64,000 nucleotides of DNA from an uncultured Solibacteraceae bacterium (GCA_964633285.1 CAZWGA010000001.1:60950-124949); one strand, 5' to 3'. Counted from the first letter of the stretch, positions 31,089 through 58,487 are shown. Notes: a model not told the origin generated them from the sequence alone. Program-made: numbers and translations.

Positions 31089-33783
<2,695 letters not shown>

Positions 33784-39172: not shown

Positions 39173-39446
39173 TTTCAGCAAACCTCTCGGTCCTGATTTC
39201 AACAGACCTTCCACGAATTCTACCCCCCTGAGACGTGCCTAAACGAAACGTAATCCGATGATGTTGCGAGCATTTATGGCCATCGGAAGGGAGTTTCTTC
39301 ATTGACACCATATCGGCTCCCTTCGTAATCTTCTTGGGTTCTCTTGTCTGCAAACAGCCAGTTGTGCGAAATGACGTAATTCTCTCCTTTTTTCTTTGTC
39401 GCATTCCGATTGTGGAGCATTATTTCGTGCAGTGGATTCTAATAAC

Positions 39447-40483: not shown

Positions 40484-40522
40484 GTTTTCATTCCAGCTAA
40501 CTAAAAAGGAGATTTCGATATC

Positions 40523-41503: not shown

Positions 41504-41521
41504 GTCCCGTTTCCGCGATTA

Positions 41522-42241
41522 ATGAGAGTCACCATCCACCAACCGGAGCATTGGCCATGGTTGGGGTTTTTTGACAAGGCTCAGCGGGCGGACGTTCTGG
41601 TCATTCTGGACAACGTCCCATTTCGCAAGAACTACTTTCAGAATCGAAATCGAATTCGTTCGGCCGCCGGCGCTCAGTGGCTCACCGTCCCAGTCCTCAT
41701 CAGCGGTCACACGGGGCAGTTGATCAACGAGGTTGTCATCAACAATGCCGGGGAGCCGCATTGGCGGAAGAAACACTTCGTTGCACTACGACAAAACTAC
41801 GGTCGGGCGGAGTTCTGGAGAAGCCACGAGGACTTTATAGCGCAGCTCTATGAGCGTGAGTGGGCGCTCTTATCCGAACTGAACGTTCACATCGTTTCCT
41901 ATCTCTTGAAGTGCCTGAGCATCGAGACGGCTGTTGTCAGATCTTCGGAACTCGCGGTCAGCGGGACCAAATCCGAATTGCTGCTGGATGTATGCAAAAA
42001 GCTGGACGCGACGGAATATCTGTCGGGGATTTCCGGGCAGGAATACTTGAATCTGAAAGCGTTTGAAAATGCCGGTGTCGGAATCCAGTTTCAGGAGTTT
42101 CATCATCCCATCTATAAGCAATGCTATTCGCCCTTCGTTCCGTGCTTGTCTGTTCTTGACCTGCTTCTGAACCACGGTCCTGCATCGGGCGACATCATTA
42201 ATGGAATCGGTGTTGAAACCATCGACGAGGTGTTCAAATGA
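41522..42241 (+). CDS. WbqC-like family protein
   Basis: ..IHQPEHWPWLGFFDK.. characteristic WbqC N-terminus. Confidence 0.65.
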   Translation: MRVTIHQPEHWPWLGFFDKAQRADVLVILDNVPFRKNYFQNRNRIRSAAGAQWLTVPVLISGHTGQLINEVVINNAGEPHWRKKHFVALRQNYGRAEFWRSHEDFIAQLYEREWALLSELNVHIVSYLLKCLSIETAVVRSSELAVSGTKSELLLDVCKKLDATEYLSGISGQEYLNLKAFENAGVGIQFQEFHHPIYKQCYSPFVPCLSVLDLLLNHGPASGDIINGIGVETIDEVFK

Positions 42242-43119
42242 CGGCTGAACACGTGGTGGTCATCGCCGAAGTCGGCGAATGCTGGAATGGCGACTTTTCA
42301 TCGGCCGAAAGGTTGATAGATGTGGCCGCTTCAGCCGGTTGCGATTATGTGAAGTTTCAGACACTCGACAGGGAAGGTATAGCTGAAGACGATCCGGAGC
42401 GTGAATGGTTCCTGAAGATCGCTCTGGACGAACCGCAACTCCAGCGTCTGCGCCGGCGCGCCGCTGATGCAGGCATTCAGTTTCTGGCGACGCCGGAAAA
42501 GGCGCACAACGCGGATATCTTGAAAGCCATCGGTTGTGATGAAATCAAAATCGCTTCGTCCTGCCTCATCGATCGCGAATTGATCGAACGCGCGACCCTG
42601 TTCTCAACGGTCTTTTTATCGACAGGGCTCGCCACGCTTGATGAAGTGGATGCGGCTGTGGCAGGGCTTTCCCGCGTTGCCAATCTGTTTTTGCTGCATT
42701 GCATTGCGGAGTACCCGACAGGTCCTCTGTTGGAAGAACGCGGATTGGTTGCCCTGGATGACGAGGAAGTTCACATTTCTATGATGCGCGTTCTGGCCGA
42801 ACGCTACCCGCATGCCAGGGTGGGATATTCGGATCACACCTCCGGTCTCACAGCGCCCCTGGTCGCGGTTGCCGCCGGCGCAAAAGTGATCGAGAAGCAC
42901 ATCACTCTTGACCGCCGCACTCCCGTACAGAATTTCAAAAACGGCGGAGCTTATATGGGCACGGATCATGTGCTTTCCCTGGAACCGGATGAGCTTAAAG
43001 AAATGGTCCGTTCGATCCGCAAAGTCGAGAGAATGCTCGGCAACAAAGTCTGGGAACGATCGGCGGGCGAAAAAAAATTGCGCACCTTCCTGCGCGAACG
43101 TTTTCATCAGGCAAGCTGA
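42238..43119 (+). CDS. N-acylneuraminate-type (NeuB/PseI-like) nonulosonic acid synthase
   Basis: ..VIAEVGECWNGDFSSAERLIDVAASAGCDYVKFQT.. NeuB TIM-barrel. 293 aa (apparently no SAF domain). Confidence 0.75.
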   Translation: MTAEHVVVIAEVGECWNGDFSSAERLIDVAASAGCDYVKFQTLDREGIAEDDPEREWFLKIALDEPQLQRLRRRAADAGIQFLATPEKAHNADILKAIGCDEIKIASSCLIDRELIERATLFSTVFLSTGLATLDEVDAAVAGLSRVANLFLLHCIAEYPTGPLLEERGLVALDDEEVHISMMRVLAERYPHARVGYSDHTSGLTAPLVAVAAGAKVIEKHITLDRRTPVQNFKNGGAYMGTDHVLSLEPDELKEMVRSIRKVERMLGNKVWERSAGEKKLRTFLRERFHQAS

Positions 43120-43125
43120 TTTTAC

Positions 43126-44106
43126 ATGCGAACGATTCTTCTTTTTGCCGAGGCAGATTCAGAAATCGGATTTGGCCACCTCGGCGAGATTCGCGCCATC
43201 AGCCGGGCGCTGACCGCGCGAGACGATATTCGGACGCGCGTTTTCGCCGTTGGAACTCCGTGCGACACCGGCAGCGATATGGCTTGCGACTGGCTTACGG
43301 ATTCCACGGGCGTCATCCAGGTCATGAACTCGATCGAAGCTGACGCCACAGTGTGGAGCTTTCGGCGGCCACTGGCTCCGGGTGTATGGGAGGCCCTCGA
43401 GACTTCGTGCGCATTCAAGGTGTGGCTGGCGGACATGCCCGAACGGATTCCCCATGTGGATTTGTTCATCATGCCCACTCTGGTGAAGGAATGGCAGCGG
43501 CATCCGCATGAAGCAAAGAGTGCCTTGCTGGGTCCCAGCTATATGACGCTCGATCCGGTTTTTGAAGCCGAGCCTGAGCCAATCCATGGCCGTACCCGCG
43601 ATGTGTTACTCAGTCTGGGAGGAGCGGACCGATCGCACGCAACGCTTCGCGTCCTTCGTGCGTTGGAGGGACTCTCCGCAACAGTGGTCATCGGTCCGGG
43701 TTTCAATCACGATCAGGAAGTCAGGCGGCTTGCGAGTGCATTAAGAATCAATGTGGAGGAAAAGCCTTCGGGGTTGAGGCCGCTTCTGATCTGCCATCGA
43801 ATTGTGATTTCGGCCGGCGGAAACACGCTCTGTGAAGCCGCGGCTTCCGGCACTCCGGCACTTGTCGCATGGGAAGATCCTCACGAACGCGCCGCCGGCA
43901 CCGCTCTTGAAGAAGCAGGCGGGGCCCTTGTTCTCGGGCAAGGGATCGCTTTGCAGCCTGATAAAGTCAGAGAGGAAATCGATCGCGCGCTCCGGACGCC
44001 GGGCCTGTTGGATTCCATGGCTCGTGCTGGGCGAAGATTGATCGACGGCAAGGGAGCGCATCGAGTTGTCGATGCCATTCGTGAACGAATGATGGCGGCC
44101 GTTTGA
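43126..44106 (+). CDS. PseG-like UDP-sugar hydrolase (GT28 C-terminal-like; pseudaminic acid pathway)
   Basis: ..ADSEIGFGHLGEIRAISRAL.. N-terminus typical of PseG. C-terminal GT-B-like half. Confidence 0.6.
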   Translation: MRTILLFAEADSEIGFGHLGEIRAISRALTARDDIRTRVFAVGTPCDTGSDMACDWLTDSTGVIQVMNSIEADATVWSFRRPLAPGVWEALETSCAFKVWLADMPERIPHVDLFIMPTLVKEWQRHPHEAKSALLGPSYMTLDPVFEAEPEPIHGRTRDVLLSLGGADRSHATLRVLRALEGLSATVVIGPGFNHDQEVRRLASALRINVEEKPSGLRPLLICHRIVISAGGNTLCEAAASGTPALVAWEDPHERAAGTALEEAGGALVLGQGIALQPDKVREEIDRALRTPGLLDSMARAGRRLIDGKGAHRVVDAIRERMMAAV

Positions 44107-45161
44107 TTCCGCACTCCAAACCCAACATCCTCGAAGCGGACGTAGAGAAAGTTGCGTCCGTGGTGCGTTCACTTCACATCGCACAAGGGCAAGTCACCGA
44201 ACGGCTGGAACAGGAATGGTGCCGGCATACGGCTTCCACGGCAGCGGTCTGTGTCGGTTCCGGAGTTGCTGCCCTCCGTTTATCGTTGCTTGCGCTTGGA
44301 GTTGGGAAGGGCGATGAAGTCGTCGTTCCGGCGTATAGCTGCGTTGCGCTGCTCAACGCCGTTCTGGCTGTGGGGGCACAGCCTGTGCTTGCCGACGTTG
44401 AACTGGATACATGGGTCCTTTCCCGCGAGACCGTAGCCGCTGTTTCTACCATGCGCACGAAGGCCGTCATTGCCGTTCATCTCTTCGGATATCCGGCTCC
44501 GGTTCCCGGGATCACGGAACTGGGCGTTCCGGTCATCGAGGATTGTGCCCACGGTATCGGTGGAATGTATGACAAGCGTCCGTTTGGAAGCGCAGCCACG
44601 CTGAATGTGGCATCGTTTTACGCAACAAAAATGCTGGGTGGTGGCGAAGGCGGTATCGTCGGTTCCAGAGATCCCGGCCTGATCGCTTTTGTTAGAAACG
44701 CCCGCGGCTATGCGGATCAACTTCCGGATGGCCGGTATCTCAACGACAAGATGACGGACATGGAGGCATCTCTGGTTGAAAGCCAGTTAGCAAGATTGCC
44801 TGAGATTCTCCGCCGCCGTGATCAAACCGCTCAACGATACGCGGTATTCCTGGAGCCTCTTGAGAAACAAGGACTGATCAAATTGCCGCGCAATATCACC
44901 GGCCGAATCTGGTACCGATACGCAGTTCGGCTGGTTCATCATCAGTCGCATTTGCTTTCTTGCAGAATGCACGAATACGAAGTGTTTGCGGACCAACCGG
45001 TGTGGGATCTGAGATCCTCGCATTTCTGGTCAGACCGGCTCGTAAACTCCTCCACGGCATTTGAGCGGGTCATTTCCCTGCCGTTGTTTCCGGATCTCAG
45101 TGAAGCCGAACAGAAATTCGTATGCCATACTTTTGCGAACCTCCTTAACGCGACAAACTGA
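44103..45161 (+). CDS. DegT-family aminotransferase (PseC-like)
   Basis: ..KPNILEADVEKV..; ..DCAHGIG..; ..SFYATKMLGGGEGGIV... Confidence 0.75.
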   Translation: MIPHSKPNILEADVEKVASVVRSLHIAQGQVTERLEQEWCRHTASTAAVCVGSGVAALRLSLLALGVGKGDEVVVPAYSCVALLNAVLAVGAQPVLADVELDTWVLSRETVAAVSTMRTKAVIAVHLFGYPAPVPGITELGVPVIEDCAHGIGGMYDKRPFGSAATLNVASFYATKMLGGGEGGIVGSRDPGLIAFVRNARGYADQLPDGRYLNDKMTDMEASLVESQLARLPEILRRRDQTAQRYAVFLEPLEKQGLIKLPRNITGRIWYRYAVRLVHHQSHLLSCRMHEYEVFADQPVWDLRSSHFWSDRLVNSSTAFERVISLPLFPDLSEAEQKFVCHTFANLLNATN

Positions 45162-46297
45162 TGACACGCTTTCTAAAAGCAATGATGGATCGCCGCGAGC
45201 GCATCCTCCTTATGGATGCGATGAAACAGCACTGGATGTCGTTTGAGCACGACTACTTTTCGCTGAACCAGACGTTCGAGCAGATTCGATATTTCGTCAG
45301 GCGCGGCCACTTCTTTCGTCATTTGAAGGACCGTTTGTATTTTCGGATTTTCCCGAAGGTCAAAATCGTTCCGCCCTTTCCGACTCACGTCGAAGTCGAG
45401 ACTGCCAGCGCCTGCCAGATGCGTTGCCCCATGTGCTACACCACCTACATGGATGACGGGCTCAAGGGCGTCATGAAATGGGACCTTTACACCAGGGTCG
45501 TGGACGAATGCGCTGCGCGCGGTGTTTATTCCATCAAACTTTCCTGGCGTGGCGAGGCTTTGCTGAACAAGAACATCGTTCGAATGGTGAAGTATGCGAA
45601 GGACAAAGGCATTCCGGATGTCGCATTTCTTTCGAACGGCGAGCGCCTTACTCCGGAATTGTCCGATGAATTGATCGATGCCGGCCTGGACTGGATCAGC
45701 TTCAGCTTCGATGGTTTCAAGGAAACCTACGATGCGATTCGCGCACCTGCCAAGTTCGAGGAAACGATCGAACGCATCCGCGTGTTGCGCGAAAAACGTG
45801 ATGCGCGCGGATTGAGCAAGCCTTTGATTCGGGTGCAGTCGATATTCAGCGTGATCAAGCATGACCCGGATGGTTTTCGAAAGCTGTTCCACGGAGTTTC
45901 CGACAGCACGAACTTCATTACCGATCAGATTCGATCGTTCGAAGAAGGCCAGATCAACCACAATCCTTTTTATCAATGTCCAACTCCGTGGCAACGGATC
46001 GCTGTCGCTCATGATGGAAAGGTCCATCAGTGCATTTCGGATTACGCGGGGATGAACATTCTGGGAGATGTGAATCAGAAGTCCCTTTACAAAATCTGGC
46101 ACGATAAGCCTTTCCGCGAACTGAGAAAGTCCTTCAATCAATTCCGATATCTCGAGAATGCCGCATGCCGGATCTGTTCCGACGGAGCCGTGACGGAAAA
46201 AGTGAAGTTGCAAATCGACGGGCACGAGAGGGAAATATCCGCCTACAAGGGTATTCAAGCGAAGATCACTCCAGTGGGAAAACGGCCGCGCAAATAG
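45161..46297 (+). CDS. Radical SAM enzyme with C-terminal SPASM-like Cys cluster
   Basis: CxxxCxxC: ..ETASACQMRCPMCYT... C-terminal ..YQCPTPW..HQCISD..AACRICS... Paralog of 52203..53354. Confidence 0.75.
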   Translation: MTRFLKAMMDRRERILLMDAMKQHWMSFEHDYFSLNQTFEQIRYFVRRGHFFRHLKDRLYFRIFPKVKIVPPFPTHVEVETASACQMRCPMCYTTYMDDGLKGVMKWDLYTRVVDECAARGVYSIKLSWRGEALLNKNIVRMVKYAKDKGIPDVAFLSNGERLTPELSDELIDAGLDWISFSFDGFKETYDAIRAPAKFEETIERIRVLREKRDARGLSKPLIRVQSIFSVIKHDPDGFRKLFHGVSDSTNFITDQIRSFEEGQINHNPFYQCPTPWQRIAVAHDGKVHQCISDYAGMNILGDVNQKSLYKIWHDKPFRELRKSFNQFRYLENAACRICSDGAVTEKVKLQIDGHEREISAYKGIQAKITPVGKRPRK

Positions 46298-46963
46298 ATG
46301 AAGGTTCTCGTCATCTCAGCGCATATGGACGACGAGATTCTCGGCATGGGCGGCACCATTGCCAAGCACGTTGCCTCCGGAGACTCCGTCACCGTTTGTG
46401 TTGTGTGCAAGCGAGCGTACAACCACCAGTTCAATCCTGTAGTCGTTCAGGAGGAAAAAGACGCCTGCATTCGGGCATCGGAAGTGATCGGCTACAGCGA
46501 TGTGCGTTTTCTTGATTTGCGGGACGAACTCCTCGATGAGCGGTTGCTCGATGTGATTGTTCCTGTCGAAGAATGCGTCCAGGATGTCCGGCCGGACGTT
46601 GTGTATACACACCATCGAGGAGATTCAAATCAGGATCACCGCGCTGTTTTTCAGGCTTCGATGGTTGCGTGCCGCAGTCTTGCCGAACCCAAAGTCCCGC
46701 GTATTCTCGCGTATGAAGTTCCGTCTTCCACCGACATTGCACCTCCTTTTCCGGAGTACTCATTTCAACCCAACTATTATGTGAATGTTGCTCCCTATCT
46801 CGACCTGAAAGTGAAAGCGATGACTGCTTACATGCGCGAGTTGAAAAAGTTTCCCCATCCACGTTCGGCCAAAGGAATTCAAACGCTCGCCTGGAAACGC
46901 GGCATGGAAATCTCCTTTGAAGCGGCGGAAGCGTTTGTGGTCGTCCGCGACCAATGGGAATAG
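46298..46963 (+). CDS. PIG-L/LmbE-family N-acetyl-sugar deacetylase
   Basis: MKVLVISAHMDDEILGMGGTI.. ..HHRGDSNQDH... Confidence 0.8.
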   Translation: MKVLVISAHMDDEILGMGGTIAKHVASGDSVTVCVVCKRAYNHQFNPVVVQEEKDACIRASEVIGYSDVRFLDLRDELLDERLLDVIVPVEECVQDVRPDVVYTHHRGDSNQDHRAVFQASMVACRSLAEPKVPRILAYEVPSSTDIAPPFPEYSFQPNYYVNVAPYLDLKVKAMTAYMRELKKFPHPRSAKGIQTLAWKRGMEISFEAAEAFVVVRDQWE

Positions 46964-47667
46964 GAATGCCGGCAAAGGCAAAAACGGCAAAATCGAAAGA
47001 GCAATTTTCAGCCGACTATCACGATTATGTGATCAAGGACGGCAGGTTGATCGGCGATTTCGACAACATGTACAGGTACTCAGCGGAGGTACCCTGGCAT
47101 CAGGACGAGCGCTGCAAACACTGGTACACCACCGTAGGACTCGCGATGATCAAGGAGCGCGCGCCTTACGACAGCATTCTCGAGGCCGGATGCGGTCTTG
47201 GATACATCTCAGCGCGTCTCAAGAAGATGACATCGCGGATTGACGCGTTCGACGTCAGCAAAGAGGCCATTCGCGTCGCTCGCGCGACTCACGAAGGAAT
47301 TCATTTCTATACGGCAGATATACGCCGCGAGACATTTGAGCCGAAGCGAAAATACGCGCTGGTCGTGATCCGGGATGTGTTCTGGTATGTGTTTCCCGAG
47401 ATGAAGACGGTGACTGAAAATATTTCCAAATGTATCCGTCCGGGCGGCTTCCTTTATATCGGTCAGTCCTTTCCGGCGCTGGAAAGCAACTTCACGGGGA
47501 AGGATGTGATTCCCGATCCCGATGCGTTGTTATCGTTTTTCCCCGAGTACCGTCCTGTTTTCAGCGCCCGGCTTCGCAATCACGAATTTGCCGGCGATGG
47601 GCCCACTTTACATTTTCTCGGAGAACGTTCGGTTGATTCTCGGAATCACACCCGCACGCGGCGGTAG
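46954..47667 (+). CDS. Class I SAM-dependent methyltransferase
   Basis: ..ILEAGCGLGYISARL.. motif I. Confidence 0.7.
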   Translation: MGIGMPAKAKTAKSKEQFSADYHDYVIKDGRLIGDFDNMYRYSAEVPWHQDERCKHWYTTVGLAMIKERAPYDSILEAGCGLGYISARLKKMTSRIDAFDVSKEAIRVARATHEGIHFYTADIRRETFEPKRKYALVVIRDVFWYVFPEMKTVTENISKCIRPGGFLYIGQSFPALESNFTGKDVIPDPDALLSFFPEYRPVFSARLRNHEFAGDGPTLHFLGERSVDSRNHTRTRR

Positions 47668-48283
47668 CAAAGGTGTGCCGCGGAAAAATCTCCGATTGGT
47701 TGCGGGCCTTCCTCTGCTCGCGTGGACGATCCGGGCCGCAAAAGAATCCCGGCTTGTCGATCGTTACGTTGTTTCGACCGAAGACGATGAAATCGCATCG
47801 GTTGCGAAAGCCCACGGGGCCGAGGTTGTGAAGCGTCCAGCAGAATTGGCGACGGATGATGCGACGACACTGAGCGTCCTTCAGCATGTTTTATCCGAAG
47901 TGCCGGCCGACACCGTCGTCGTTCTGCAGGCCACATCTCCGGTTCGCGATAAGGGCTTGATCGATTCCTGCATCGAAAGATTTCAGAAGACGCGCGCGGA
48001 TTCCCTCGCGACTGGCTGGCACTGTACGTATACCGAGTACGGAACGAATGACCTGCGCCGCCAGGACATTAAAGGCTTCTTCTACGATGACGGCAACGTC
48101 TATGTGATCCGGGCGGACCTGATCGCCAAAGGCGACGCGTACGGAAAGAAAATCGAACGCGTGATGATCGACAAAGAACAAAACATCGACATCGATGATG
48201 AATTCGATTTTTGGCTGGCCGAACAAGTCCTTGAAAAAAGGTTACGCGATAGTAAAACGGGCAGTAGGGAGAGGGTTTCGTGA
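47633..48283 (+). CDS. CMP-nonulosonic acid synthetase (acylneuraminate cytidylyltransferase family; NeuA/PseF-like)
   Basis: ..[19 protein letters not shown].. TTG 47633 with GGAG RBS preferred over ATG 47522, which would overlap the methyltransferase by 146 nt. Confidence 0.65.
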
Positions 48284-48849
48284 ACGCCAAGCCGCCATTA
48301 GCCGACAAAGCAAGCGTAACTCACGCCACTTTAAGAGACCGGTTCAGACTGTGGCAGGCTCGGCGACATCCGGGTGTCACTATTGGACAAGGCGTCATTA
48401 TCAAGCCGCACGTTGAATTGCGTTTGACCGACAACGCCAGGCTGATTGTGGGAGATCACGTCACGATTGATTCCTACGCCTATTTGCAACTGACCAAGCC
48501 TGAACCTACAGTCATTCTTGGCAACTACGTCGGAATTGGTCGGCATTCGGTGATCGCCGCGAAGCGAAGCATTGTCATCGGAGACTACACACAGATGGGT
48601 CCATATTGTCAGATCAACGATCAGGATCATGGCGCTTCCAGAGACGATCTGATCATGAATCAGAGAGCGATCATCGAGCCCGTTACCATTGGCCGCGATT
48701 GCTGGTTTGGTTCCGGCGTCCGGGTGCTCAAGGGTGTGACGATCGGCGACGGGGCAATTATCGGAGCAGGCTCGATTGTCACGAAAGATGTTCCCCCTTA
48801 TGAAATCTGGGGCGGCGTTCCAGCACGGCGCCTGAAAGTTCGCGAATAA
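48280..48849 (+). CDS. Hexapeptide-repeat (LbH) sugar N-/O-acetyltransferase (PseH/WbbJ-like)
   Basis: Repeated [LIV]GxxxxI hexapeptides. ..[28 protein letters not shown]... Confidence 0.75.
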
Positions 48850-48859
48850 AAGCTTTCCC

Positions 48860-50665
48860 GTGTTTCTTGCAACAACAGCCCTTACCGACTTCTGGGATAA
48901 AGAGAGCAGCGGAGTTTTTCTTGGGGAATGGTGTAAGCGCCGGGACCGACGCGCCGATTGGGACGGGTTGAACTATACGACGTTGCAATGCATCTGGAAC
49001 GATCGTGTTCGTTACTATGAAGCAGCAGCTTACGTCACAAGTTGTTGCGAGCGAATACTGGAACGGCTCGCCAGATATCTCAACGTTGTCCACGGTCTCG
49101 ATAACAATATCCGATACTGGAATATTCTGATTGGCGCGTGGCTGATTCATTACGTGCACTGCATCTACGATCGATACGTCCACCTGTCGCAGGCCTTTTC
49201 ACTCTTTCCTGAACTCGAAACGATCGTTCTGGACAAACGCGATTTCAAGACCCCTGCAAAAACTCATGAAGCAATACTCTCTTTGTGCGAAGACCCTTAT
49301 AACCTTCAAGTCTGTTCACAACTCATAGAAGAAATGGGGTATCGCTTTCCCACAAAACGGTTCTCGGCGAAACTCGCTGAGCCAAACGCGGAAACTCAAC
49401 AGCCGACATTACGAGCGCATCTTCGCAACGCTGTTAGGGCTGCGAATTCGACGCTCACAAGAAGCCTTTCCTGGAAAAAGCGGGGAGTCGTTTGCGATTT
49501 GGATTGGCCAACACGAGATGTCGGCGAACTGGTTCGTCAGAGCCGTTTCAATATTCTCTCGCTGGAGAAACGCACGGCCCAATGGAAGATTCCCGCTGCA
49601 ACTTTCGACAACAAACGTGAGGGACTCCGAAACTTGAGCGCCGAGACCACTCTGGAGCGTCTGTGCGTTAACCTGCTTCCCCAGAATTTTCCTACGCTCT
49701 ATCTGGAGGGGTTCAAAGAAGGCCGGGAGCAAGGCATGCAGGCGTATTCCCAGCAATTTCCAAAATTCGCGATGTCGGCCGTGGGCTGGTCCTACAACGA
49801 GGAATTCAAGTTTTGGGCAGCAGAGGCGTCACAACATGGGACGCAGCTTATCGGTGTGCAGCACGGCGGCGGCTATGGCGTGTTTCGTTTTGCTCCGTAC
49901 GAAATTCACGAGAACAAATTGACGGACTTCTATGCCACGTGGGGATGGGGTGTTGACGGTTCTTCCAAATACGTGCCGCTTCCAAATCCGAAGCTTGCGA
50001 TCGTTCGCCGGGCACGAACGGACGCCGCGTCGAGTGGCAAGATTCTCTTTGCGGCACACGATGAGCCTCGTTATCTGTTCCGGTTTCACTCCGCGCCGGT
50101 TGGGCCCCAGGCCTCCGAACTTGCGGATCTGGAAATCCGGTTTCTGAAATCCATGCCCGCCACAGTCCTTTCGCGTATTGTTTTCAGGAAGTATCCCGGT
50201 GATTTTGGAAATGCTGTTCGTGAATACATCGGAAACAAATTTCCTGATTTGAAATGGGACCAGCAGTCCTCGTTCTATGCGAGCGTTGCGAATTGCGAAC
50301 TGGTCGTGTTCGATCACTGCGGAACAGGGTTCCTGGAGTCCCTGGCCGCGAATGTTCCCACTCTGATTTTTTGGGATCCCGAGCGATGGGAACTTCGGGG
50401 TGAGGCCGTGCCTTATTTTGAACTGCTCCATCAGGCAGGCATCCTCCACTTTACGCCGGAATCGGCAGCCTCCGCGCTCGCAGAGATCTCCTCGAATATC
50501 GGTTCTTGGTGGCTGACCCCGGCGGTTCAGGAAGCCCGGCGCCGGTTCGTGAAACAGTACGCGCTTGAAAGCGACGGTTGGGCCGGTCTTTGGCTTCAGA
50601 GTATTCGCGGCTGCGTTTCTGACCAACCTCCGGCAACAGCCAAATACAGGCGGGAATCGATATGA
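48860..50665 (+). CDS. Large hypothetical protein (about 600 aa), possibly a LIC12162-type putative transferase of nonulosonic-acid loci
   Basis: 601-aa ORF with good coding composition in the middle of the sugar locus. Family assignment is from memory only. Confidence 0.5.
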   Translation: MFLATTALTDFWDKESSGVFLGEWCKRRDRRADWDGLNYTTLQCIWNDRVRYYEAAAYVTSCCERILERLARYLNVVHGLDNNIRYWNILIGAWLIHYVHCIYDRYVHLSQAFSLFPELETIVLDKRDFKTPAKTHEAILSLCEDPYNLQVCSQLIEEMGYRFPTKRFSAKLAEPNAETQQPTLRAHLRNAVRAANSTLTRSLSWKKRGVVCDLDWPTRDVGELVRQSRFNILSLEKRTAQWKIPAATFDNKREGLRNLSAETTLERLCVNLLPQNFPTLYLEGFKEGREQGMQAYSQQFPKFAMSAVGWSYNEEFKFWAAEASQHGTQLIGVQHGGGYGVFRFAPYEIHENKLTDFYATWGWGVDGSSKYVPLPNPKLAIVRRARTDAASSGKILFAAHDEPRYLFRFHSAPVGPQASELADLEIRFLKSMPATVLSRIVFRKYPGDFGNAVREYIGNKFPDLKWDQQSSFYASVANCELVVFDHCGTGFLESLAANVPTLIFWDPERWELRGEAVPYFELLHQAGILHFTPESAASALAEISSNIGSWWLTPAVQEARRRFVKQYALESDGWAGLWLQSIRGCVSDQPPATAKYRRESI

Positions 50666-52197
50666 GGAATGGCGTCATCCATCGGTTCCTCGCGAGTTTT
50701 GTTGCCAACTTCTGCCGGATGGGAATATCCGTTTTCACGGGACTCGTCGTCGCACGAGGTCTGGGAGTCGAGCGTTTCGGCGACCTGAATTTTCTTCTGG
50801 CGAGCTTTGCGGCGATCTCTCAATTGGTTGAAATGGGAAGTGCGTCGGCCTTTTATACGCTGATTTCCCGAAGACCGCGGGAGCGCACCTTCTTCGGCGT
50901 TTATGTCGTGTGGGTTTCAATACAGTTCGTGATCATTGCGGCTCTAGTGCTTTTTCTCCCTTCGCAACTGTTCGGCCGGGTGTGGTTCGATCATCAGAGA
51001 GGTATTGTTTTGATGGCCCTGGCTGCAACGTTCTTTTCAACACAGATATGGGCCTTGATCAGCCAGCTTAGTGAAGCGTTGCGAAAAACGGTGCTGATCC
51101 AGACGGTGTCTGTCGTTCAGGCCGCTGCACACCTGTTGCTTATTGCCGCCCTCATTTACCTCAAAGCGTTGTCGGTCTGGACCGTACTGTTGCTTCTTGT
51201 TCTGGAATACGCGGTTATCGCATTAATTCTGGGGCCACGGCTGATTCTCGGAAACATCAATCCGTCGGCGATTCGCCAGGACAGTACAGCGATTTTGAAA
51301 GAATTTGTTACTTATTGCACGCCATTGGTTGTTTATGCAGGCGCAGGTTTTCTCTACGCGTTTGCGGATCGCTGGTTTCTCCAGTTGTACGGTGGTTCAC
51401 AGCAGCAGGGATTCTTTTCGCTCTCTCAACAAATATCGAGTGTGAGTCTCATTGCCACCACTTCGATGTCCAGAGTCTTCTGGAAAGAAGTTGCGGAGGC
51501 GCGCCATTTGGAGAATCACTCGCGAGTGACGGCATTGTATGACAACGTTTTGAGGGGCCTTTACTTTGCATCCGCATGGTTGAGTTGCCTGCTTATTCCC
51601 TACAGCAGAGAACTCCTGCGTACGTTTTTGGGACCTTCGTTCGAGCCCGCCTGGCTGGCATTCAGCATCATGCTGATTTACCCGATTCATCAGTCGATTG
51701 GGCAAGTGACCGGTTCATTTCTTTGGGCCAGCGCGGATACCGGCATGTACGCCCGCGTTGGAATTGCAACAATGCTGGTTGGTGTACCCGTCACATACTT
51801 TCTGTTGGCGCCTCCGAACGCTCGCATTCCGGGATTCTCGCTCGGGGCGACCGGCCTTGCCCTGAAGCTGGTTGTGCTTCAGCTTCTGGCGGTCAATGTA
51901 CAAATGTTCTTTATCGCAAGAAAAGACCGGACGCAGTCGCACATTTCCTATCAGTTCTTTGTGCTCCTGCTCTTGCTCGGTCTGAGCGCTTTGTGCAAGG
52001 CCGGAGTGGATTTCCTCTTCAAGCTTGTTTGGCCCGGAGCGCCGACATTGGGAATCGCGGCTGCCGGCGGTCTCGCGTACATCGCCATTTCATTGTCGGG
52101 CATCGCGGTGGCCCCGGGTCTTCTGGGAATGAGCCGTGATCAGCTACGAATCGCGATCAGCCGGGTTGGGAGCGCCCTCATGCCGTCGCAGGCCTGA
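50662..52197 (+). CDS. wzx: Wzx-type oligosaccharide flippase (MOP superfamily)
   Basis: About 12-14 TM helices. Polysaccharide-biosynthesis-protein N-terminal pattern. Confidence 0.7.
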   Translation: MRNGVIHRFLASFVANFCRMGISVFTGLVVARGLGVERFGDLNFLLASFAAISQLVEMGSASAFYTLISRRPRERTFFGVYVVWVSIQFVIIAALVLFLPSQLFGRVWFDHQRGIVLMALAATFFSTQIWALISQLSEALRKTVLIQTVSVVQAAAHLLLIAALIYLKALSVWTVLLLLVLEYAVIALILGPRLILGNINPSAIRQDSTAILKEFVTYCTPLVVYAGAGFLYAFADRWFLQLYGGSQQQGFFSLSQQISSVSLIATTSMSRVFWKEVAEARHLENHSRVTALYDNVLRGLYFASAWLSCLLIPYSRELLRTFLGPSFEPAWLAFSIMLIYPIHQSIGQVTGSFLWASADTGMYARVGIATMLVGVPVTYFLLAPPNARIPGFSLGATGLALKLVVLQLLAVNVQMFFIARKDRTQSHISYQFFVLLLLLGLSALCKAGVDFLFKLVWPGAPTLGIAAAGGLAYIAISLSGIAVAPGLLGMSRDQLRIAISRVGSALMPSQA

Positions 52198-52202
52198 AAA
52201 AC

Positions 52203-53354
52203 ATGTCTCAACAGAAAACAACGTTCGACAAGGCCAACAGTTTTGTAGCGATTCGGCATCACGACTCGGAGGCCGCCGACTGCTACGAACGAATACGCCG
52301 GTTGCGCGAGAGGATTCCGGCGGACGCCTCCGATTACCGATCGAGCGTCATTCTTCGCGCTTGCCGTGAAGCGCTGGGCGAGGAAACCGGCAGCGCCGGG
52401 ACGGCCTTCACACTTCGCGAACATGTCATCGAAGAACTGAAGCGTCTCGATGAGGAACAACTGCCGCGATACCTTTTTTATCGCTATCGCTATGACGTCT
52501 ATCCGGTGACGAAACAATTGGACACTTTCCCGCCGTGTCTTCAGGTGGAGCCGACGTCGATCTGCAATTATCGATGCGTATTCTGTTATCAAACCGACAC
52601 GGAGTTCACCGACCGCAAGAATGGGTTCATGGGCTCGATGACGCTTGACATGTTCAAGAGCATCGTCGATCAGGCCCAGGGAAATTGCGAAGCCCTCACC
52701 CTGGCATCGCGCGGCGAGCCGCTGCTGTGCCGCGATATCAAGAAGATGCTGAGCTATGCCGCCGGGAAATTCCTCGCGCTCAAAATCAATACCAATGCTT
52801 GGTACCTCGATGAGGCCAATGCGCACGCCATTCTTCAGGCAGATCCGAATACGGTCGTCTTCTCGGCGGATGCTGCGGCCGAACCCCTTTACAGCCAGTT
52901 GCGGGTTCGAGGTAATTTGAAGCGCGTTCTAACGAACATCGAAGCGTTTCATAACCTTCGGGAACGGGAATATCCGAAAACGAAGTTGATTACACGAGTT
53001 TCGGGCGTGCGATACACGGAGTCGCAGAATATCGATGAAATGGAAGGCTTCTGGGCCGGCTTTGTCGATCAGGTTGCGTTTGTCGATTACAACCCCTGGG
53101 AGAATACCTATATCAGTCCTGTGAATGAGATCGCCAAACCGTGCTCGGATCTCTGGAGACGCACGTTTGTCTGGTTCGACGGCACGGTGAATCCCTGCGA
53201 TGTGGATTACAAGTCGACTTTGAAAGTCGGCAATGTAGCTACGGAATCTCTTCAGGATATGTGGACGGGCGGGAAATACTCTGAATTGAGAAACGCTCAC
53301 CTGGAGCAGCGGCGCCAAGCGTCGTCGCCATGCAATCGCTGTACGGTCATTTGA
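52203..53354 (+). CDS. Radical SAM enzyme with SPASM-like C-terminal Cys cluster (paralog of 45161..46297)
   Basis: ..EPTSICNYRCVFCYQTD.. and C-terminal ..CSDLW..NPCDVD..SSPCNRC... Confidence 0.75.
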   Translation: MSQQKTTFDKANSFVAIRHHDSEAADCYERIRRLRERIPADASDYRSSVILRACREALGEETGSAGTAFTLREHVIEELKRLDEEQLPRYLFYRYRYDVYPVTKQLDTFPPCLQVEPTSICNYRCVFCYQTDTEFTDRKNGFMGSMTLDMFKSIVDQAQGNCEALTLASRGEPLLCRDIKKMLSYAAGKFLALKINTNAWYLDEANAHAILQADPNTVVFSADAAAEPLYSQLRVRGNLKRVLTNIEAFHNLREREYPKTKLITRVSGVRYTESQNIDEMEGFWAGFVDQVAFVDYNPWENTYISPVNEIAKPCSDLWRRTFVWFDGTVNPCDVDYKSTLKVGNVATESLQDMWTGGKYSELRNAHLEQRRQASSPCNRCTVI

Positions 53355-53363
53355 TCTGAAGCC

Positions 53364-54122
53364 ATGATTTGCTCACTCCTGCTTGGACGTGAAGGAAGCG
53401 CCGGATTTCCGGGCAAGAATGTTCTGCCTGTCCTCGGTCGGCCGCTGATGACGTACCCGTTGCTTGCGGCACTGCACACGAAAAAAATCGACCGCGTCTA
53501 CGTTTCAACGGATTCGGCGCGCATCAAAGAGATTTCGCGCGCGCACAATGCAATCGTCATCGATCGTCCGGCGTATCTGGCAACGAAGGAAGCGTTGGGC
53601 GAAGACGCTTACGTTCACGGATATCAGGTCATTCGCGATGAATTGCGCAAGGAAGGCCAGACCGTCGAGTTGATGGTCCTGCTTTTTTGTAATGCTCCGA
53701 CGATCGATCCCGCGCTGCTGGGACAGGGTATCGACGCCCTCCGCTCGAATCCTGATGCGGATTCCGCCGTTACCGTTTCCGTTTACAACATGTGGAGTCC
53801 GCTCCGCGCGAGAAAACTCGACAATGCCGGTTACCTCCAGCCATTCGTTCCGTTCGAAGTGTTTGGAGATCCCAAGACACTGAACTGCGACCGCGATTCG
53901 CAGGGGGACGTATTCTTTGCCGATATGAGTACATCCATCGTGCGTCCGCATTGTTTGGAGAAGTTGAAAGCGGGTCTCCTGCCTCAGCGATGGATGGGAC
54001 AAAAGATACTGCCCATCAAACAGTGGGGCGGCCTGGACATCGACTATGAGTGGCAGCTTCCTCAAGCGGAATTCTGGCTGCGCGCTCACGGTTTCACCGA
54101 AACCTCAACGCCGTATGACTGA
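53364..54122 (+). CDS. Second cytidylyltransferase (CMP-sugar synthetase, CTP_transf_3 family)
   Basis: ..LLGREGSAGFPGKNVLPVLGRPLMTYPL... Confidence 0.65.
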   Translation: MICSLLLGREGSAGFPGKNVLPVLGRPLMTYPLLAALHTKKIDRVYVSTDSARIKEISRAHNAIVIDRPAYLATKEALGEDAYVHGYQVIRDELRKEGQTVELMVLLFCNAPTIDPALLGQGIDALRSNPDADSAVTVSVYNMWSPLRARKLDNAGYLQPFVPFEVFGDPKTLNCDRDSQGDVFFADMSTSIVRPHCLEKLKAGLLPQRWMGQKILPIKQWGGLDIDYEWQLPQAEFWLRAHGFTETSTPYD

Positions 54123-54867
54123 CAGGGTGCCGCACACGGACAAACGGGTCCTGATCACCGGCGGCAGTTCCGGCATCGGCGCAGCCACCGCGCGATTGCT
54201 GGCATGCGGCGGCGCCCACGTCGCCGTTCACTACAACCGGCGAAAGAAAGAAGCCGAGCAGATCTGCAATGAAATGGAGCGAAGCGGAAGGCGAGCGATC
54301 CCGCTGCAGGCGGATCTAACCGATCCCGCATCAGCCCGAATTCTCATCGATGAGGCGATTCGACAACTGGGCGGTCTCGACAGTCTCGTCAACAATGCGG
54401 GTGGTATGAAGGTACGGCCCGTGATGGAATTGACTCACATGGAATGGCACGACGCGTTTGCCTTGAACGTTGAAGCGCCCTTTTTCCTTTCCCAGCGGGC
54501 CATCGAACACATGCGTGCTAACGGCGGTGGAAGGATTGTGAACATCAGTTCGATCGGCGTGAAATATGGAGGCTCGCCGACAAGCCTTCACTATTCGGCG
54601 GCCAAGGCGGCGTTGGAAGCGATTACAGGGAGCCTGGCAAAGTTCGGCGCTCCTTTCGGTATTCTGGTGAATGCGATTCGACCCGGAATCATCGATACCG
54701 CGTTTCATAGTGAAACCTCAGCCGAGCAGATGGAAAAACGAGTTGCGATGATTCCGTTGAAACGCGCAGGCCAGCCTGAAGAGGTAGCCGAGATGATTAA
54801 ATACCTGCTCTCGCCTGCCGGTGACTTCATCACCGGCCAGATTTTTGCAGTGAGCGGAGGCGATTGA
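54115..54867 (+). CDS. SDR-family NAD(P)-dependent oxidoreductase
   Basis: ..KRVLITGGSSGIGAA.. ..NNAG.. ..YSAAKAA... ATG 54115 overlaps the upstream stop. Confidence 0.8.
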   Translation: MTDRVPHTDKRVLITGGSSGIGAATARLLACGGAHVAVHYNRRKKEAEQICNEMERSGRRAIPLQADLTDPASARILIDEAIRQLGGLDSLVNNAGGMKVRPVMELTHMEWHDAFALNVEAPFFLSQRAIEHMRANGGGRIVNISSIGVKYGGSPTSLHYSAAKAALEAITGSLAKFGAPFGILVNAIRPGIIDTAFHSETSAEQMEKRVAMIPLKRAGQPEEVAEMIKYLLSPAGDFITGQIFAVSGGD

Positions 54868-55850
54868 ACACCCGGACTTTCATTTCAACCGTTCCATTCG
54901 GCAATCCGTACCGGGAGCCGCTGGATCTCCTGGAAACTGCCGGGATTGAGTATCGAATCAATCCCCTGGGCCGGCGGCTGAAGGAACATGAACTCGCGGA
55001 GATGCTGGCCGGATGCGGAGTTCTCATTGCGGGTACGGAGCCCATCACGGAACGCGTTTTTGAAGCAGCCCCGGATTTGCAATTGGTTGCCAGAGTGGGA
55101 ATCGGACTCGACAATGTCGATTTGATTTCCGCGCGAAAGAAGGGCATTACGGTTTCGTACACTCCGGATGCTCCATCTCCAGCGGTAGCCGAACTCACCG
55201 TTGGATTGATGTTGAGTCTCGTGCGGTCGATCCCGCTTGCGGACCGCCACATCCGCCGCGCGGATTGGCAACGCCTCATGGGCAGGCGGCTCGACGGCCT
55301 CACCGTGGGCCTCATCGGACTCGGCCGCGTCGGAAAGCGTGTGGCGCGCATCCTCAGAGGGGGATTTCCCAATACGGTATTGCTCGGCAACGATCTCTGT
55401 CCCGATCAGGAATTCGGTCAATCGTGCGGTATCGAGTGGGTTTCAAAGGTGAAACTGTTTGAGGAATCGGACATAATTTCATTCCACGTGCCCCTTACAC
55501 ATGAAACGCACCGCATGATCACGGCTCGCGAAATCGAACACATGAAGCGCGAAGTGTTTCTGATCAACACGTCGCGCGGCAACGTGATCGATGAAATGGA
55601 TCTGTTGCGCGCGCTTCGTTCCGAGCGCATTGCCGGCGCGGCATTGGATGTATTCGACTGTGAGCCTTATTCGGGCGAACTGGCGGCCGTCGAGCGATGC
55701 ATTTTGACCGCCCACATGGGTTCGATGTCGCTGGATTGCCGGGCGCGCATGGAACTCGAGGCCACACAGGAAGTCGTTCGTTTTTTGACTGCAGGCAGCG
55801 TGCAATGCCCCGTGCCGGATTGCGAATATGCAATGCGCGCCGGTAACTAG
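54864..55850 (+). CDS. D-isomer-specific 2-hydroxyacid dehydrogenase family (NAD-binding)
   Basis: ..GLIGLGRVGKRVARIL.. ..NTSRGNVIDE.. ..AALDVF... Confidence 0.8.
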   Translation: MNTRTFISTVPFGNPYREPLDLLETAGIEYRINPLGRRLKEHELAEMLAGCGVLIAGTEPITERVFEAAPDLQLVARVGIGLDNVDLISARKKGITVSYTPDAPSPAVAELTVGLMLSLVRSIPLADRHIRRADWQRLMGRRLDGLTVGLIGLGRVGKRVARILRGGFPNTVLLGNDLCPDQEFGQSCGIEWVSKVKLFEESDIISFHVPLTHETHRMITAREIEHMKREVFLINTSRGNVIDEMDLLRALRSERIAGAALDVFDCEPYSGELAAVERCILTAHMGSMSLDCRARMELEATQEVVRFLTAGSVQCPVPDCEYAMRAGN

Positions 55851-55868
55851 AATTTAGCGGAGGTTTTG

Positions 55869-57530
55869 ATGATCGATGCGAATCGAGACACAACGTTCTT
55901 CGAAGTAACCACAAAAGCGGTTCTGCCGCCTTTGCCGAAGGACCCCACTCCGAAGAATTTCAAGGTGCTTCTGGTTTACCCGAATTACTCGATGGTGAAC
56001 CTGCTGCCCACCAACATCGGCATTCTTACCGCCTGTTTGAAGCAGAACGGTTTTACGGTGGATTTATTTGACACGACGTTTTATCGAACATCCGAGCGAA
56101 CGCTCGATGAGATTCGCGTCGAGAATCTCCAGGTCCGCAAGTTCAATCTTGAAGAAGCCGGCGTACGATTCAAGACGACCAACTACGTCGACGATTTCAA
56201 AAAGAAAGTCGCAGCCTTCAAGCCCGATCTCATCGGTGTGACGACCGTCGAAGACACGTGGCCGCAAGGAAAAAAACTTATCGAAGCCGTCCGCGATTAT
56301 CCCGCGCCGGTGATCGTCGGCGGAGTGTTTCCGTCGCTGGCTCCCGAGTGCGTCATTGAACATCCCGATGTCGACATGATCTGTGTCGGCGAAGGCGAGT
56401 ATGCCCTCATCGAAGTCGCAACACGCCTGATGAATAACGAAGACTGCTCGACGATCCAGAATCTCTGGGTCAAGAAAGACGGCGAGATCCGCAAGAATCC
56501 GATGCGGCCGCCCATCAGCATGGACGAAGTACCGTTCGGCGATTTCGATCTTTTCGAAGTCGAACGCTTTTATCGTCCGATGCAGGGAAAGGTCGTTCGA
56601 ATGGCTCCCATCGAAACCGATCGCGGCTGTCCCTACAAATGCCGGTTCTGTGAAGCTCCGTCGCTGGTGGGCCTGTATCGGGAACAAACGGGTCAATATT
56701 ATTTCCGGCGGAAGAGCTGGACGAAGGTCCGGGAGGAAATCGATTTGTACCGGCGGAAATACAATGCGGAGTACATCTATTTCAATGCCGAAACTTTCCT
56801 GGCGATGAGCGAGGAAGAGTTCAAGGAATTCATTCGTGTGTATGAGAATGTCCGCCTTCCTTTCTGGATGCAGACTCGTATCGAGACGATCACGGAATCC
56901 AGAGTGAAGGAATTGGAACGGGTGAATTGCAATCGCATTTCATTCGGCCTGGAACACGGCAATGAAGAATTCCGGAAGAAGATCGTCGGGAAAGGTTTTG
57001 CAAACAGTCAGATCGTTTCCGTGTTTCAGATCATGGACCAGTATTCGATTCCGATCACGATCAACAACATTCTTGGATTTCCGGGCGAGACTCGAGATCT
57101 TGTCTTCGACACGATCGAGCTGAACCGGCAGCTCGGCACCGACAGCGTCAATGCATACGTATTCACGCCGTATCGGGGGACCGCCATGTACAACGACGCG
57201 GTGACGAAAGGTTATGTTGATCCGGACGCCGAGACGAATTCCATTATCACGGGATCGATTCTCGACATGCCGACCATCAGCAAAGACGAAATTCTGGGTC
57301 TTGTTCGCACATTCAGCCTTTATGTGAAGTTTCCGAAGGAAGAATGGCCCGACATTCGCAAGGCCGAAAAATTTACTCCCGAAGGAAACCGCAAGTTCGA
57401 AGAACTCTCAGCGCGTTATTACGAGAGGTTCTTCGATCACGATTTTAAATGGACCAAAAAGGCGTGCATTTCGACGCGCGTCTATGATGGTCCGGTGCGC
57501 AAACAAGTTACCGAAGACATCACGAATTAA
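55869..57530 (+). CDS. Cobalamin(B12)-binding-domain radical SAM enzyme (class B; putative C-methyltransferase or rearrangement enzyme)
   Basis: N-terminal B12-binding fold (..LLVYPNYSMVNLLPTNIGILTACLKQNGF.. ..DLIGVTT..). ..ETDRGCPYKCRFCEAP.. CxxxCxxC. GGAGG RBS before ATG 55869. Confidence 0.8.
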   Translation: MIDANRDTTFFEVTTKAVLPPLPKDPTPKNFKVLLVYPNYSMVNLLPTNIGILTACLKQNGFTVDLFDTTFYRTSERTLDEIRVENLQVRKFNLEEAGVRFKTTNYVDDFKKKVAAFKPDLIGVTTVEDTWPQGKKLIEAVRDYPAPVIVGGVFPSLAPECVIEHPDVDMICVGEGEYALIEVATRLMNNEDCSTIQNLWVKKDGEIRKNPMRPPISMDEVPFGDFDLFEVERFYRPMQGKVVRMAPIETDRGCPYKCRFCEAPSLVGLYREQTGQYYFRRKSWTKVREEIDLYRRKYNAEYIYFNAETFLAMSEEEFKEFIRVYENVRLPFWMQTRIETITESRVKELERVNCNRISFGLEHGNEEFRKKIVGKGFANSQIVSVFQIMDQYSIPITINNILGFPGETRDLVFDTIELNRQLGTDSVNAYVFTPYRGTAMYNDAVTKGYVDPDAETNSIITGSILDMPTISKDEILGLVRTFSLYVKFPKEEWPDIRKAEKFTPEGNRKFEELSARYYERFFDHDFKWTKKACISTRVYDGPVRKQVTEDITN

Positions 57531-57539
57531 ATCCAGCGT

Positions 57540-58460: not shown

Positions 58461-58487
58461 CTCTGCCTGTCTTTCGTTTCAACAGCC

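Follow-up and report, generated by a model that had tools for sequence, protein, structure and literature searches.

Two BtrN-like Twitch radical SAM enzymes as candidate tailoring enzymes of CMP-activated acidic sugars in a surface-polysaccharide operon

rSAM-A and rSAM-B are two radical S-adenosylmethionine (SAM) enzymes encoded in a 64,000-nucleotide stretch of DNA (the window) from an uncultured Solibacteraceae bacterium (GCA_964633285.1 CAZWGA010000001.1:60950-124949). Their genes lie on the + strand at 45161..46297 (378 amino acids, aa) and 52203..53354 (383 aa), as an initial annotation had placed them, with the similar length it described. Judged from sequence, the two proteins are probably (probability about 0.55) anciently diverged members of a very large BtrN-like Twitch clade that would tailor acidic-sugar intermediates activated with cytidine monophosphate (CMP), not peptides. 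The broader part of this reading, a carbohydrate-directed role outside the maturation of ribosomally synthesised peptides modified after translation (RiPPs), appears very likely. Dehydrogenation as the reaction type is proposed tentatively, by analogy with BtrN, at somewhat less than even odds.

Both proteins match the Radical_SAM family PF04055 (rSAM-A 64.3 bits, rSAM-B 53.8 bits; cut-off 29.5) and the SPASM family PF13186 (45.8 and 49.3 bits; cut-off 21.5). Each contains the N-terminal CX3CX2C motif reported in the initial annotation. In rSAM-A it is formed by C85, C89 and C92 (45413..45436, +), the presumed ligands of the SAM-binding 4Fe-4S cluster, and is kept in 120/120 family sequences; in rSAM-B it is formed by C121, C125 and C128 (52563..52586, +) and is invariant in the family. 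The C-terminal multi-Cys cluster proves to consist of exactly four residues per protein: C273, C291, C336, and C339 in rSAM-A (45977..46177, +; 99-100% conserved) and C314, C332, C377, and C380 in rSAM-B (53142..53342, +; invariant). Scored on 120 sequences per family, the seven cluster cysteines of each protein (three in CX3CX2C and four at the C-terminus) are 99-100% conserved and are the sole near-invariant cysteines of both families, so that the auxiliary-cluster residues expected by the initial annotation are present in the alignments. The NCBI gene call for rSAM-A begins seven codons later, at the alternative start 45182 (P0001, 371 aa).

The C-terminal ligands follow the pattern C-X17-C (with GX4C), a gap, and CX2C, and no cysteine follows the CxxC in either protein or family. 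Relative to the seven-Cys SPASM motif (CX9-15GX4C...CX2CX5CX3C...C), the CX5CX3C...C half is missing from both proteins. The SPASM model TIGR04085 is not reached (rSAM-A 22.5 bits, rSAM-B 26.0 bits; cut-off 27), and its positions 1-66 of 93 are matched. The C-terminal domain is best described as a Twitch domain with one predicted four-Cys auxiliary cluster, not as a full SPASM domain. Of the SPASM/Twitch class proposed at the outset, the radical SAM and Twitch assignments stand, while the SPASM assignment fails on its missing second-cluster cysteines and on the TIGR04085 score. AlphaFold2 (AF2) models have predicted local distance difference test (pLDDT) scores of 92.4 for rSAM-A and 78.8 for rSAM-B, and the N-terminal extensions of about 75 and about 110 residues, respectively, are mainly helical in these models.

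BtrN is the 2-deoxy-scyllo-inosamine (DOIA) dehydrogenase of the butirosin pathway. It is the best Protein Data Bank match of both proteins by single-sequence search (4M7T/4M7S), and its profile matches (E 4e-19 for rSAM-A and 2.6e-14 for rSAM-B) stand apart from all others, which are at 1e-6 or weaker. It is also the top Foldseek match of both (E 2.4e-13 and 2.9e-9), with target-normalised template modelling (TM) scores of 0.73 and 0.69. The four Twitch cysteines of rSAM-A align with BtrN Cys169, 188, 232, and 235, and C332, C377, and C380 of rSAM-B align with cysteines of the BtrN auxiliary cluster. Because of this cysteine pattern, and because BtrN ranks best by sequence, profile, and structure, both proteins are predicted to be Twitch enzymes of the BtrN kind whose single auxiliary cluster is fully ligated by Cys.

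In the June 2026 release of NCBIfam, neither protein attains the cut-off of any model. TIGR04317 and TIGR04311 come closest, but their matches reach 78-93 bits where 380-400 would be required and are confined to the radical SAM core. The spiro-SPASM family (TIGR04321) was considered for rSAM-B and rejected at 76.3 bits against a cut-off of 250, with model positions 225-502 of 510 aligned. The enzymes resemble BtrN-type Twitch proteins but belong to no named family.

rSAM-A and rSAM-B are paralogs. Pairwise alignment gives 26% identity over 299 residues (E 3e-26), and comparison of the two family profiles with hhalign gives a probability of 100 (E 1.4e-38) and also spans a segment common to both families immediately upstream of the cluster-binding loop. 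The likeness is real and far above chance. Since identity is just 26%, the pair is ascribed on sequence divergence to an ancient duplication into two separate families and not to a local or recent event. The duplicated pair of the initial annotation therefore holds as paralogy, but not as recent duplication, with each member in an old family and a cassette of its own.

Nonulosonic acids, which include sialic, pseudaminic (Pse), and legionaminic (Leg) acids and their derivatives, cap flagella, lipopolysaccharides, capsules, and S-layers and govern immune recognition, phage binding, and motility. rSAM-A is found among genes for such sugars. An indexed search detects 367 relatives of rSAM-A, and the names of rSAM-A and rSAM-B relatives, where given, are generic radical SAM annotations. 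The nearest genome matches of rSAM-A are metagenome-assembled genomes (MAGs) of Acidobacteriota at 77-78% identity. Gene neighborhoods were surveyed by scoring all open reading frames (ORFs) of 34 genome loci for rSAM-A and 80 metagenome loci for rSAM-B against the proteins of the window. Of the rSAM-A loci, 28 had 8 kb or more of flank; when neighbors within 11 kb are counted in these, the NeuB-like synthase recurs most often (24/28), followed by the GalE-like short-chain dehydrogenase/reductase SDR1 and the cytidylyltransferase (18/28 each), a DegT aminotransferase (17/28), the PIG-L deacetylase and the PseG-like hydrolase (15/28 each), and the WbqC-family protein (9/28). Homologs of a B12-binding radical SAM protein (B12-rSAM) lie near rSAM-A in 11/28 loci.

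The block of DegT, SDR1, cytidylyltransferase, rSAM-A, PIG-L, PseG-like, WbqC, and NeuB genes is also present in Lentisphaera, Hadarchaeum, Altiarchaeota, Micrarchaeota, and Methanomicrobiales. Different phyla, Archaea included, thus share this setting of nonulosonic-acid and CMP-sugar genes, and the precomputed annotations of independent contigs agree with it and with the rSAM-B neighborhoods described below. rSAM-A thus sits in a nonulosonic-acid (Pse/Leg-like) core cassette, here called cassette 1. An rSAM-A homolog is also present in the cultivable Polynucleobacter sp. AP-Ainpum-60-G11 (CP061318.1). A plasmid collection contains distant relatives alone (23-35% identity), one of which, from Azospirillum, lies in a glycan locus.

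rSAM-B, whose relatives number 2,645 with a top identity of 66%, marks a different gene set. In the 35 loci counted, cytidylyltransferase 2 is a neighbor in 30 (directly adjacent in 15), a second GalE-like SDR (SDR2) in 24, a FabG-like SDR in 22, B12-rSAM in 20, a 2-hydroxyacid dehydrogenase in 16, a TIGR04326-like putative transferase in 12, and NeuB in just nine. Relatives of rSAM-B are located amid ketoreductase-type SDRs, often with an aminotransferase. rSAM-B is therefore the signature of a second cassette (cassette 2) of cytidylyltransferase, 2-hydroxyacid dehydrogenase, SDRs, and B12-rSAM. De novo clustering of neighbors adds to it a HAD phosphatase, an FkbM methyltransferase, a protein of 627 aa that no Pfam family matches, a class I/II aminotransferase, and a protein resembling 6-phosphogluconolactonase. 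In nine rSAM-B loci the cytidylyltransferase is fused to the 2-hydroxyacid dehydrogenase, as in a 588-aa pairing of CTP_transf_3 and D-2-hydroxyacid dehydrogenase domains (L055:4302-6065), which functionally links these two enzymes of cassette 2.

Both cassettes lie side by side in the window and likewise in loci L040, L045, L049, L050, and L088. The radical SAM enzymes are one of three paralogous pairs across the cassettes, alongside SDR1/SDR2 (32%, E 6e-42) and the two cytidylyltransferases (25%, E 2e-14). The shared rSAM/SDR/CTP_transf_3 triad suggests a duplicated three-enzyme functional unit.

Domain fusions within the clade point in the same direction. An exhaustive profile search places 2,128 representative clusters in the clade at E <= 1e-30, and fusions were sought among the best 150 of these. 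The radical SAM/Twitch unit is fused to NeuB with a SAF domain (P0260), to 2-hydroxyacid dehydrogenase in two clusters (P0275, P0332), to an Epimerase-family SDR (P0282), to CTP_transf_3 (P0286/P0391), to Methyltransf_23 (P0250), and, separately, to an FkbM methyltransferase (P0305). The NeuB-SAF fusion (703 aa, L123:906-3017) is a continuous ORF followed by genes for a carrier protein, an AMP-binding ligase, and an AAC(3)-like N-acyltransferase, and the CTP_transf_3 fusion (584 aa, L124:10001-11755) is a continuous ORF followed by B12-rSAM. Both occur in sugar contexts, and their radical SAM domains share 31-38% identity with rSAM-A and keep the four-Cys pattern. The fusion partners all come from families that neighbor rSAM-A or rSAM-B in the window, and none is peptide-related. 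Each fusion is weak alone because most were seen once at the 90% clustering level; jointly, these predicted proteins provide strong independent support for a nonulosonic-acid/CMP-sugar role.

These same contexts bear on the possibility that the enzymes are peptide or protein maturases (of RiPP, anaerobic sulfatase-maturing (anSME)-like, or metalloenzyme type) that stand in a sugar locus by chance. The PF13186 matches and the 'maturase' titles of TIGR04317 and TIGR04311 favor such a role, but the scores for the latter are far below cut-off and confined to the radical SAM core. The anSME model TIGR03942 gives rSAM-B 31.7 bits against a cut-off of 349.45 and is absent from the best 25 matches of rSAM-A, and PqqE, sactipeptide, and other maturase families likewise score far under their cut-offs. 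No intergenic room exists for a precursor peptide gene, with gaps of -146 to +39 nucleotides (nt) between consecutive genes across 39503..61009, and every short ORF around rSAM-A (44900..46500) lies inside a larger gene. The N-terminal extensions give no detectable PqqD-like or RiPP recognition element (RRE)-like domain, even at E <= 10. Together with the conserved sugar context and the fusions to sugar enzymes, these results largely refute a maturase role, which retains hardly any probability. The absence of a precursor peptide and the sugar-directed role put forward in the initial annotation are both well supported.

A BtrN-like dehydrogenation is the simplest model of the reaction because of the BtrN-like fold and the fully ligated auxiliary cluster. 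In BtrN, the auxiliary cluster is fully ligated and serves electron transfer, not substrate binding. By analogy, reductive cleavage of SAM would generate a 5'-deoxyadenosyl radical, which would abstract a hydrogen atom from a carbinol carbon of a nucleotide-linked amino sugar or ulosonic acid. One electron would then pass to the auxiliary cluster to yield a keto sugar, in the manner of the dehydrogenations by BtrN and SpeY. A neighboring aminotransferase could then aminate the ketone. The likely partner of rSAM-A in this step would be DegT2 (44103..45161, +), a second, PseC-like DegT aminotransferase whose gene is translationally coupled to that of rSAM-A. Alternatively, an SDR could reduce the ketone from the other face, with net epimerization as the result. 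The overlap of the DegT2 stop codon with the rSAM-A start may echo the oxidation-transamination logic of BtrN and BtrS.

Several observations weigh against this proposal. Identity to BtrN is just 17-18% for either protein. DegT2 directly adjoins rSAM-A in five of the 28 loci and is present in 10/28, and the idea that rSAM-A and DegT2 form an obligatory oxidase-aminotransferase pair everywhere was accordingly rejected. Twitch enzymes include the dehydrogenases BtrN and SpeY as well as the epimerases NeoN and HygY, and the predicted fold would not by itself decide the reaction type. The rSAM-B family has conserved cysteines outside the cluster ligands (C112 in 97%, C162 in 92%, and C54 in 88% of 120 sequences). 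Finally, SDR1 and SDR2 lack the acid/base pair of 4,6-dehydratases (STDEVYG, STSEVYG), and the operon has no LegB/PseB-type dehydratase, which together would make radical dehydration or deoxygenation a serious rival. A direct orthologue of BtrN was also considered for the two proteins and rejected on the same low identity and on gene context: the neighbors are NeuB, CTP_transf_3, and PseG-like genes, and no 2-deoxystreptamine or aminoglycoside genes lie nearby.

The SDR motifs speak for a rival reading, a DesII- or AprD4-like radical lyase or deoxygenase. Such an enzyme would abstract a hydrogen atom and eliminate a beta OH or NH3 to give a keto-deoxy sugar, which a GalE-like SDR could reduce or a DegT enzyme could aminate, so that the radical step would stand in for the missing 4,6-dehydratase chemistry. 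SDR1 ([AG]ST[TIV]WVY[SE]) and SDR2 (AS[ST][ILV]YVYS), with their orthologues included, have an aromatic residue at the position of the dehydratase catalytic Glu and no D/S-E pair, and SDR1 was ruled out on this motif as a LegB/RmlB-type 4,6-dehydratase. This argument rests on the motifs of RmlB, DesIV, and LegB and on the LegB-like SDRs of loci L002 and L007. The duplication of the rSAM, SDR, and cytidylyltransferase triad and the existence of an SDR-rSAM fusion are also consistent with a lyase, and in the structure and profile searches with rSAM-B, DesII ranks among the matches that come next after BtrN. DesII and AprD4, however, lack the BtrN-type four-Cys Twitch cluster. In profile searches BtrN outranks DesII by five or more orders of magnitude: the E-value for rSAM-B is 2.6e-14 with BtrN against 2.8e-5 with DesII, DesII is unlisted for rSAM-A at E <= 0.001, and the DesII family model TIGR04426, rejected as an assignment, gives 25.9 bits against a cut-off of 450. 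A lyase is accordingly judged unlikely, albeit the foremost competitor of dehydrogenation.

The extra cysteines of rSAM-B bear instead on a radical epimerase of the NeoN/HygY type, which would invert an unactivated stereocenter of a diamino sugar or nonulosonic acid to give a Pse/Leg stereoisomer. NeoN and HygY are Twitch enzymes that act on amino sugars, nonulosonic acids exist as many stereoisomers, and the peptide epimerase EpeE is among the Foldseek matches. The conserved C112 and C162 of rSAM-B would suit such a reaction, but in the AF2 model these residues occupy the N-terminal ends of strands beta1 and beta2, on the barrel face opposite the SAM cluster, and no conserved cysteine occurs in residues 177-313 in the rSAM-B family. 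rSAM-A has no conserved cysteine outside the seven cluster ligands (C117 is found in 23% of 120 sequences), which argues against this chemistry at least for rSAM-A. Epimerization is judged unlikely, and less likely than elimination.

A further possibility starts from cassette 2. One or both enzymes, together with B12-rSAM, may alter the carbon skeleton of an ulosonic acid linked to CMP, whether by forming C-C bonds, by branching, or by extending the chain. Cassette 2 mostly lacks a NeuB-type synthase (present in 9/35 loci), nearly always has a cytidylyltransferase, and often has B12-rSAM, and the cytidylyltransferase/2-hydroxyacid dehydrogenase fusion occurs in nine loci. Unassigned CMP-linked C10 alpha-keto acids have been described in Magnetospirillum gryphiswaldense in a 2026 preprint (doi 10.64898/2026.04.20.719630), and rSAM-A homologs are present in MAGs of Rhodospirillales. 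On the other side, no direct link ties the rSAM or cassette genes to these C10 acids, and a one-carbon extension is more simply given to a B12-rSAM methyltransferase alone. Skeleton remodeling is thus very unlikely.

Cassette 2 could, with slightly better but still poor odds, constitute a NeuB-independent route to a CMP-activated ulosonic acid. In such a route the dehydrogenase would oxidize an aldonic acid to a 2-keto acid, the 2-keto acid would be activated with CMP, and rSAM-B and B12-rSAM would rebuild its carbon skeleton and its functional groups while it is a nucleotide sugar. If this is true, the route would define a new class of sialic-acid-like surface sugars and could explain the unassigned C10 acids of Magnetospirillum. 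The dehydrogenation proposed for the Twitch enzymes remains the preferred, if tentative, reaction.

A single dense gene array extends along the + strand, starting at 39503 and reaching at least 62429. Promoter- or terminator-like sites in the operon are not above chance in a consensus scan, and the window contains no tRNA genes. The upstream part of cassette 1 comprises, all on the + strand, a DegT aminotransferase (39503..40483), SDR1 (40523..41503; motif GSTTWVYS), the WbqC-family protein (41522..42241), the NeuB-like synthase (42238..43119; 293 aa), the PseG-like hydrolase (43126..44106), and DegT2. The NeuB-like synthase consists of the NeuB domain only and lacks the C-terminal SAF domain of many homologs. 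rSAM-A and rSAM-B flank the cytidylyltransferase and flippase genes, as initially described, with six genes between them on the + strand: the PIG-L deacetylase (46298..46963), a SAM methyltransferase (46954..47667), cytidylyltransferase 1 (CTP_transf_3, about 47672..48283), a hexapeptide acetyltransferase (48280..48849), a LIC12162-family transferase (48860..50665; TIGR04331 457.6 bits, over the cut-off), and a Wzx-like flippase (50662..52197). These form the downstream part of cassette 1.

rSAM-B is followed, again on the + strand, by the other genes of cassette 2: cytidylyltransferase 2 (CTP_transf_3, 53364..54122), the FabG-like SDR (about 54115..54867), the D-2-hydroxyacid dehydrogenase (54864..55850), B12-rSAM (55866..57530; 554 aa), SDR2 (57540..58460; motif ASTLYVYS), an acetyltransferase (58488..59111), and the TIGR04326-like putative transferase (59108..61009). 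B12-rSAM is the third radical SAM gene of the operon and reaches no equivalog model at cut-off; its best matches are HpnJ, a lipid B12-rSAM, BchE, and P-methyltransferases of the PhpK/Sden_1168 type. The ORFs listed as 47522..48283 and 54046..54867 run 146 and 77 nt into the genes before them and are probably over-extended at the start; the cytidylyltransferase domain begins at about 47672, and the SDR probably at about 54115. An antisense ORF (45173..46258, -; 361 aa) spans nearly all of rSAM-A and is most likely a shadow ORF, because the + strand rSAM-A protein is strongly conserved.

Beyond cassette 2 (61023..64000, +), further genes of the operon encode a Wzy_C-like polymerase/ligase, an NTP_transferase, and an SDR that bears the motif ASSDKAYG and is cut by the window end; the latter two may belong to a CDP-glucose-type pathway. 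Upstream of the operon, genes for a GDP-mannose 4,6-dehydratase and a fucose-synthase-like SDR are located at 31850..33783 (-), and two ORFs just upstream, at 35241..37349 (-, 702 aa) and 37574..39214 (-, 546 aa), have no Pfam match. The whole stretch looks like one Wzx/Wzy-type surface-polysaccharide operon.

Other genes recur near rSAM-A homologs elsewhere. In several loci, mostly proteobacterial (among them L001, L002, and L123), they are accompanied by an AMP-binding ligase, a small protein resembling a carrier, an acyltransferase of the Antibiotic_NAT (AAC(3)-like) family, and DUF4910/DUF2172, a set that hints at an unusual N-acyl substituent. A shorter rSAM/SPASM-domain subfamily (337 aa; L002:6457-7470, L009, L010, L014) adjoins the LIC12162-family transferase and scores about 95-108 bits to rSAM-A. 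These nonulosonic-acid loci harbor several distinct radical SAM subfamilies.

Twitch radical SAM enzymes that act on carbohydrates have so far been known from antibiotic pathways, and their presence here in a widespread pathway for cell-surface sugars is well supported by the sequence comparisons. To our knowledge, the canonical nonulosonic-acid pathways described to date use only nicotinamide adenine dinucleotide (NAD), pyridoxal phosphate, acetyl-CoA, and phosphoenolpyruvate chemistry. If the proposed role is true, a radical SAM step whose conservation extends from Acidobacteria and Pelagibacteraceae as far as DPANN and methanogens among the Archaea would bring radical chemistry to these pathways. 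It would also supply gene markers for predicting the sugar structures now emerging from untargeted nucleotide-sugar mass spectrometry, and Twitch-domain enzymology would reach from antibiotic pathways to primary cell-surface glycan synthesis.

Full-text searches found no literature linking radical SAM enzymes with nonulosonic acids, none on spiro-SPASM, and none of relevance joining radical SAM, SPASM, and O-antigen. Among the papers listed for nonulosonic, pseudaminic, legionaminic, and sialic acids and NeuB, none mentions radical SAM, and the literature found on WbqC and LIC12162 was uninformative. In Brachyspira hyodysenteriae, an uncharacterized radical SAM gene lies with a glycosyltransferase in a virulence-associated four-gene plasmid block (PMC4267127). 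The preprint that reports the Magnetospirillum acids also describes a Leg-like cluster of Kuenenia with a deacetylase that leads to free-amine nonulosonic acids (doi 10.64898/2026.04.20.719630). The sps legionaminic acid pathway of Bacillus subtilis uses UDP-linked precursors, places the CMP step last, and has no early cytidylyltransferase step.

Cassette 1 is similar to the canonical PseBCHGIF and LegBCHGIF pathways in its DegT (PseC/LegC-like), PseG-like, NeuB-like, and PseF-like genes. Unlike those pathways, its counterparts all score under the equivalog cut-offs, it has neither a PseB/LegB-type dehydratase motif nor PseH, and it adds rSAM-A, PIG-L, WbqC, and a methyltransferase. We know of no radical SAM step in the Pse and Leg pathways as described.

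The SPASM maturases anSME, PqqE, SuiB, and CteB share with rSAM-A and rSAM-B their radical SAM core and the SPASM motif's first half, in keeping with the PF13186 matches. In contrast to these maturases, rSAM-A and rSAM-B lack the cysteines of a second auxiliary cluster, and neither a peptide substrate nor an RRE-like domain was found for them. DesII is the TDP-4-amino-4,6-dideoxyglucose deaminase/dehydrogenase and has no four-Cys Twitch cluster. It is a structural match of both proteins and is comparable as a radical SAM enzyme for a nucleotide-linked amino sugar made by an SDR and a DegT enzyme. SpeY, HygY, and NeoN share the Twitch architecture and act on sugars, and SpeY (7WZX) is among the Foldseek matches. 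They differ in their aminoglycoside pathways and in matches far weaker than that of BtrN, and rSAM-A has no counterpart of the catalytic Cys of the epimerases HygY and NeoN.

BtrN is the closest of these systems. In it, too, a Twitch domain comes after a radical SAM core built as a partial TIM barrel, and its four Cys ligands match those of rSAM-A and rSAM-B one-to-one. The BtrN pathway has an amino-carbohydrate substrate, a DegT-family aminotransferase partner, and the PIG-L-family deacetylase BtrD. rSAM-A and rSAM-B differ from BtrN in having 75-110 additional residues, mostly helical, at the N-terminus and an insertion ahead of the Twitch domain. Whereas BtrN belongs to an antibiotic cluster, rSAM-A and rSAM-B are set in a nonulosonic-acid/CMP-sugar context for cell-surface glycans.

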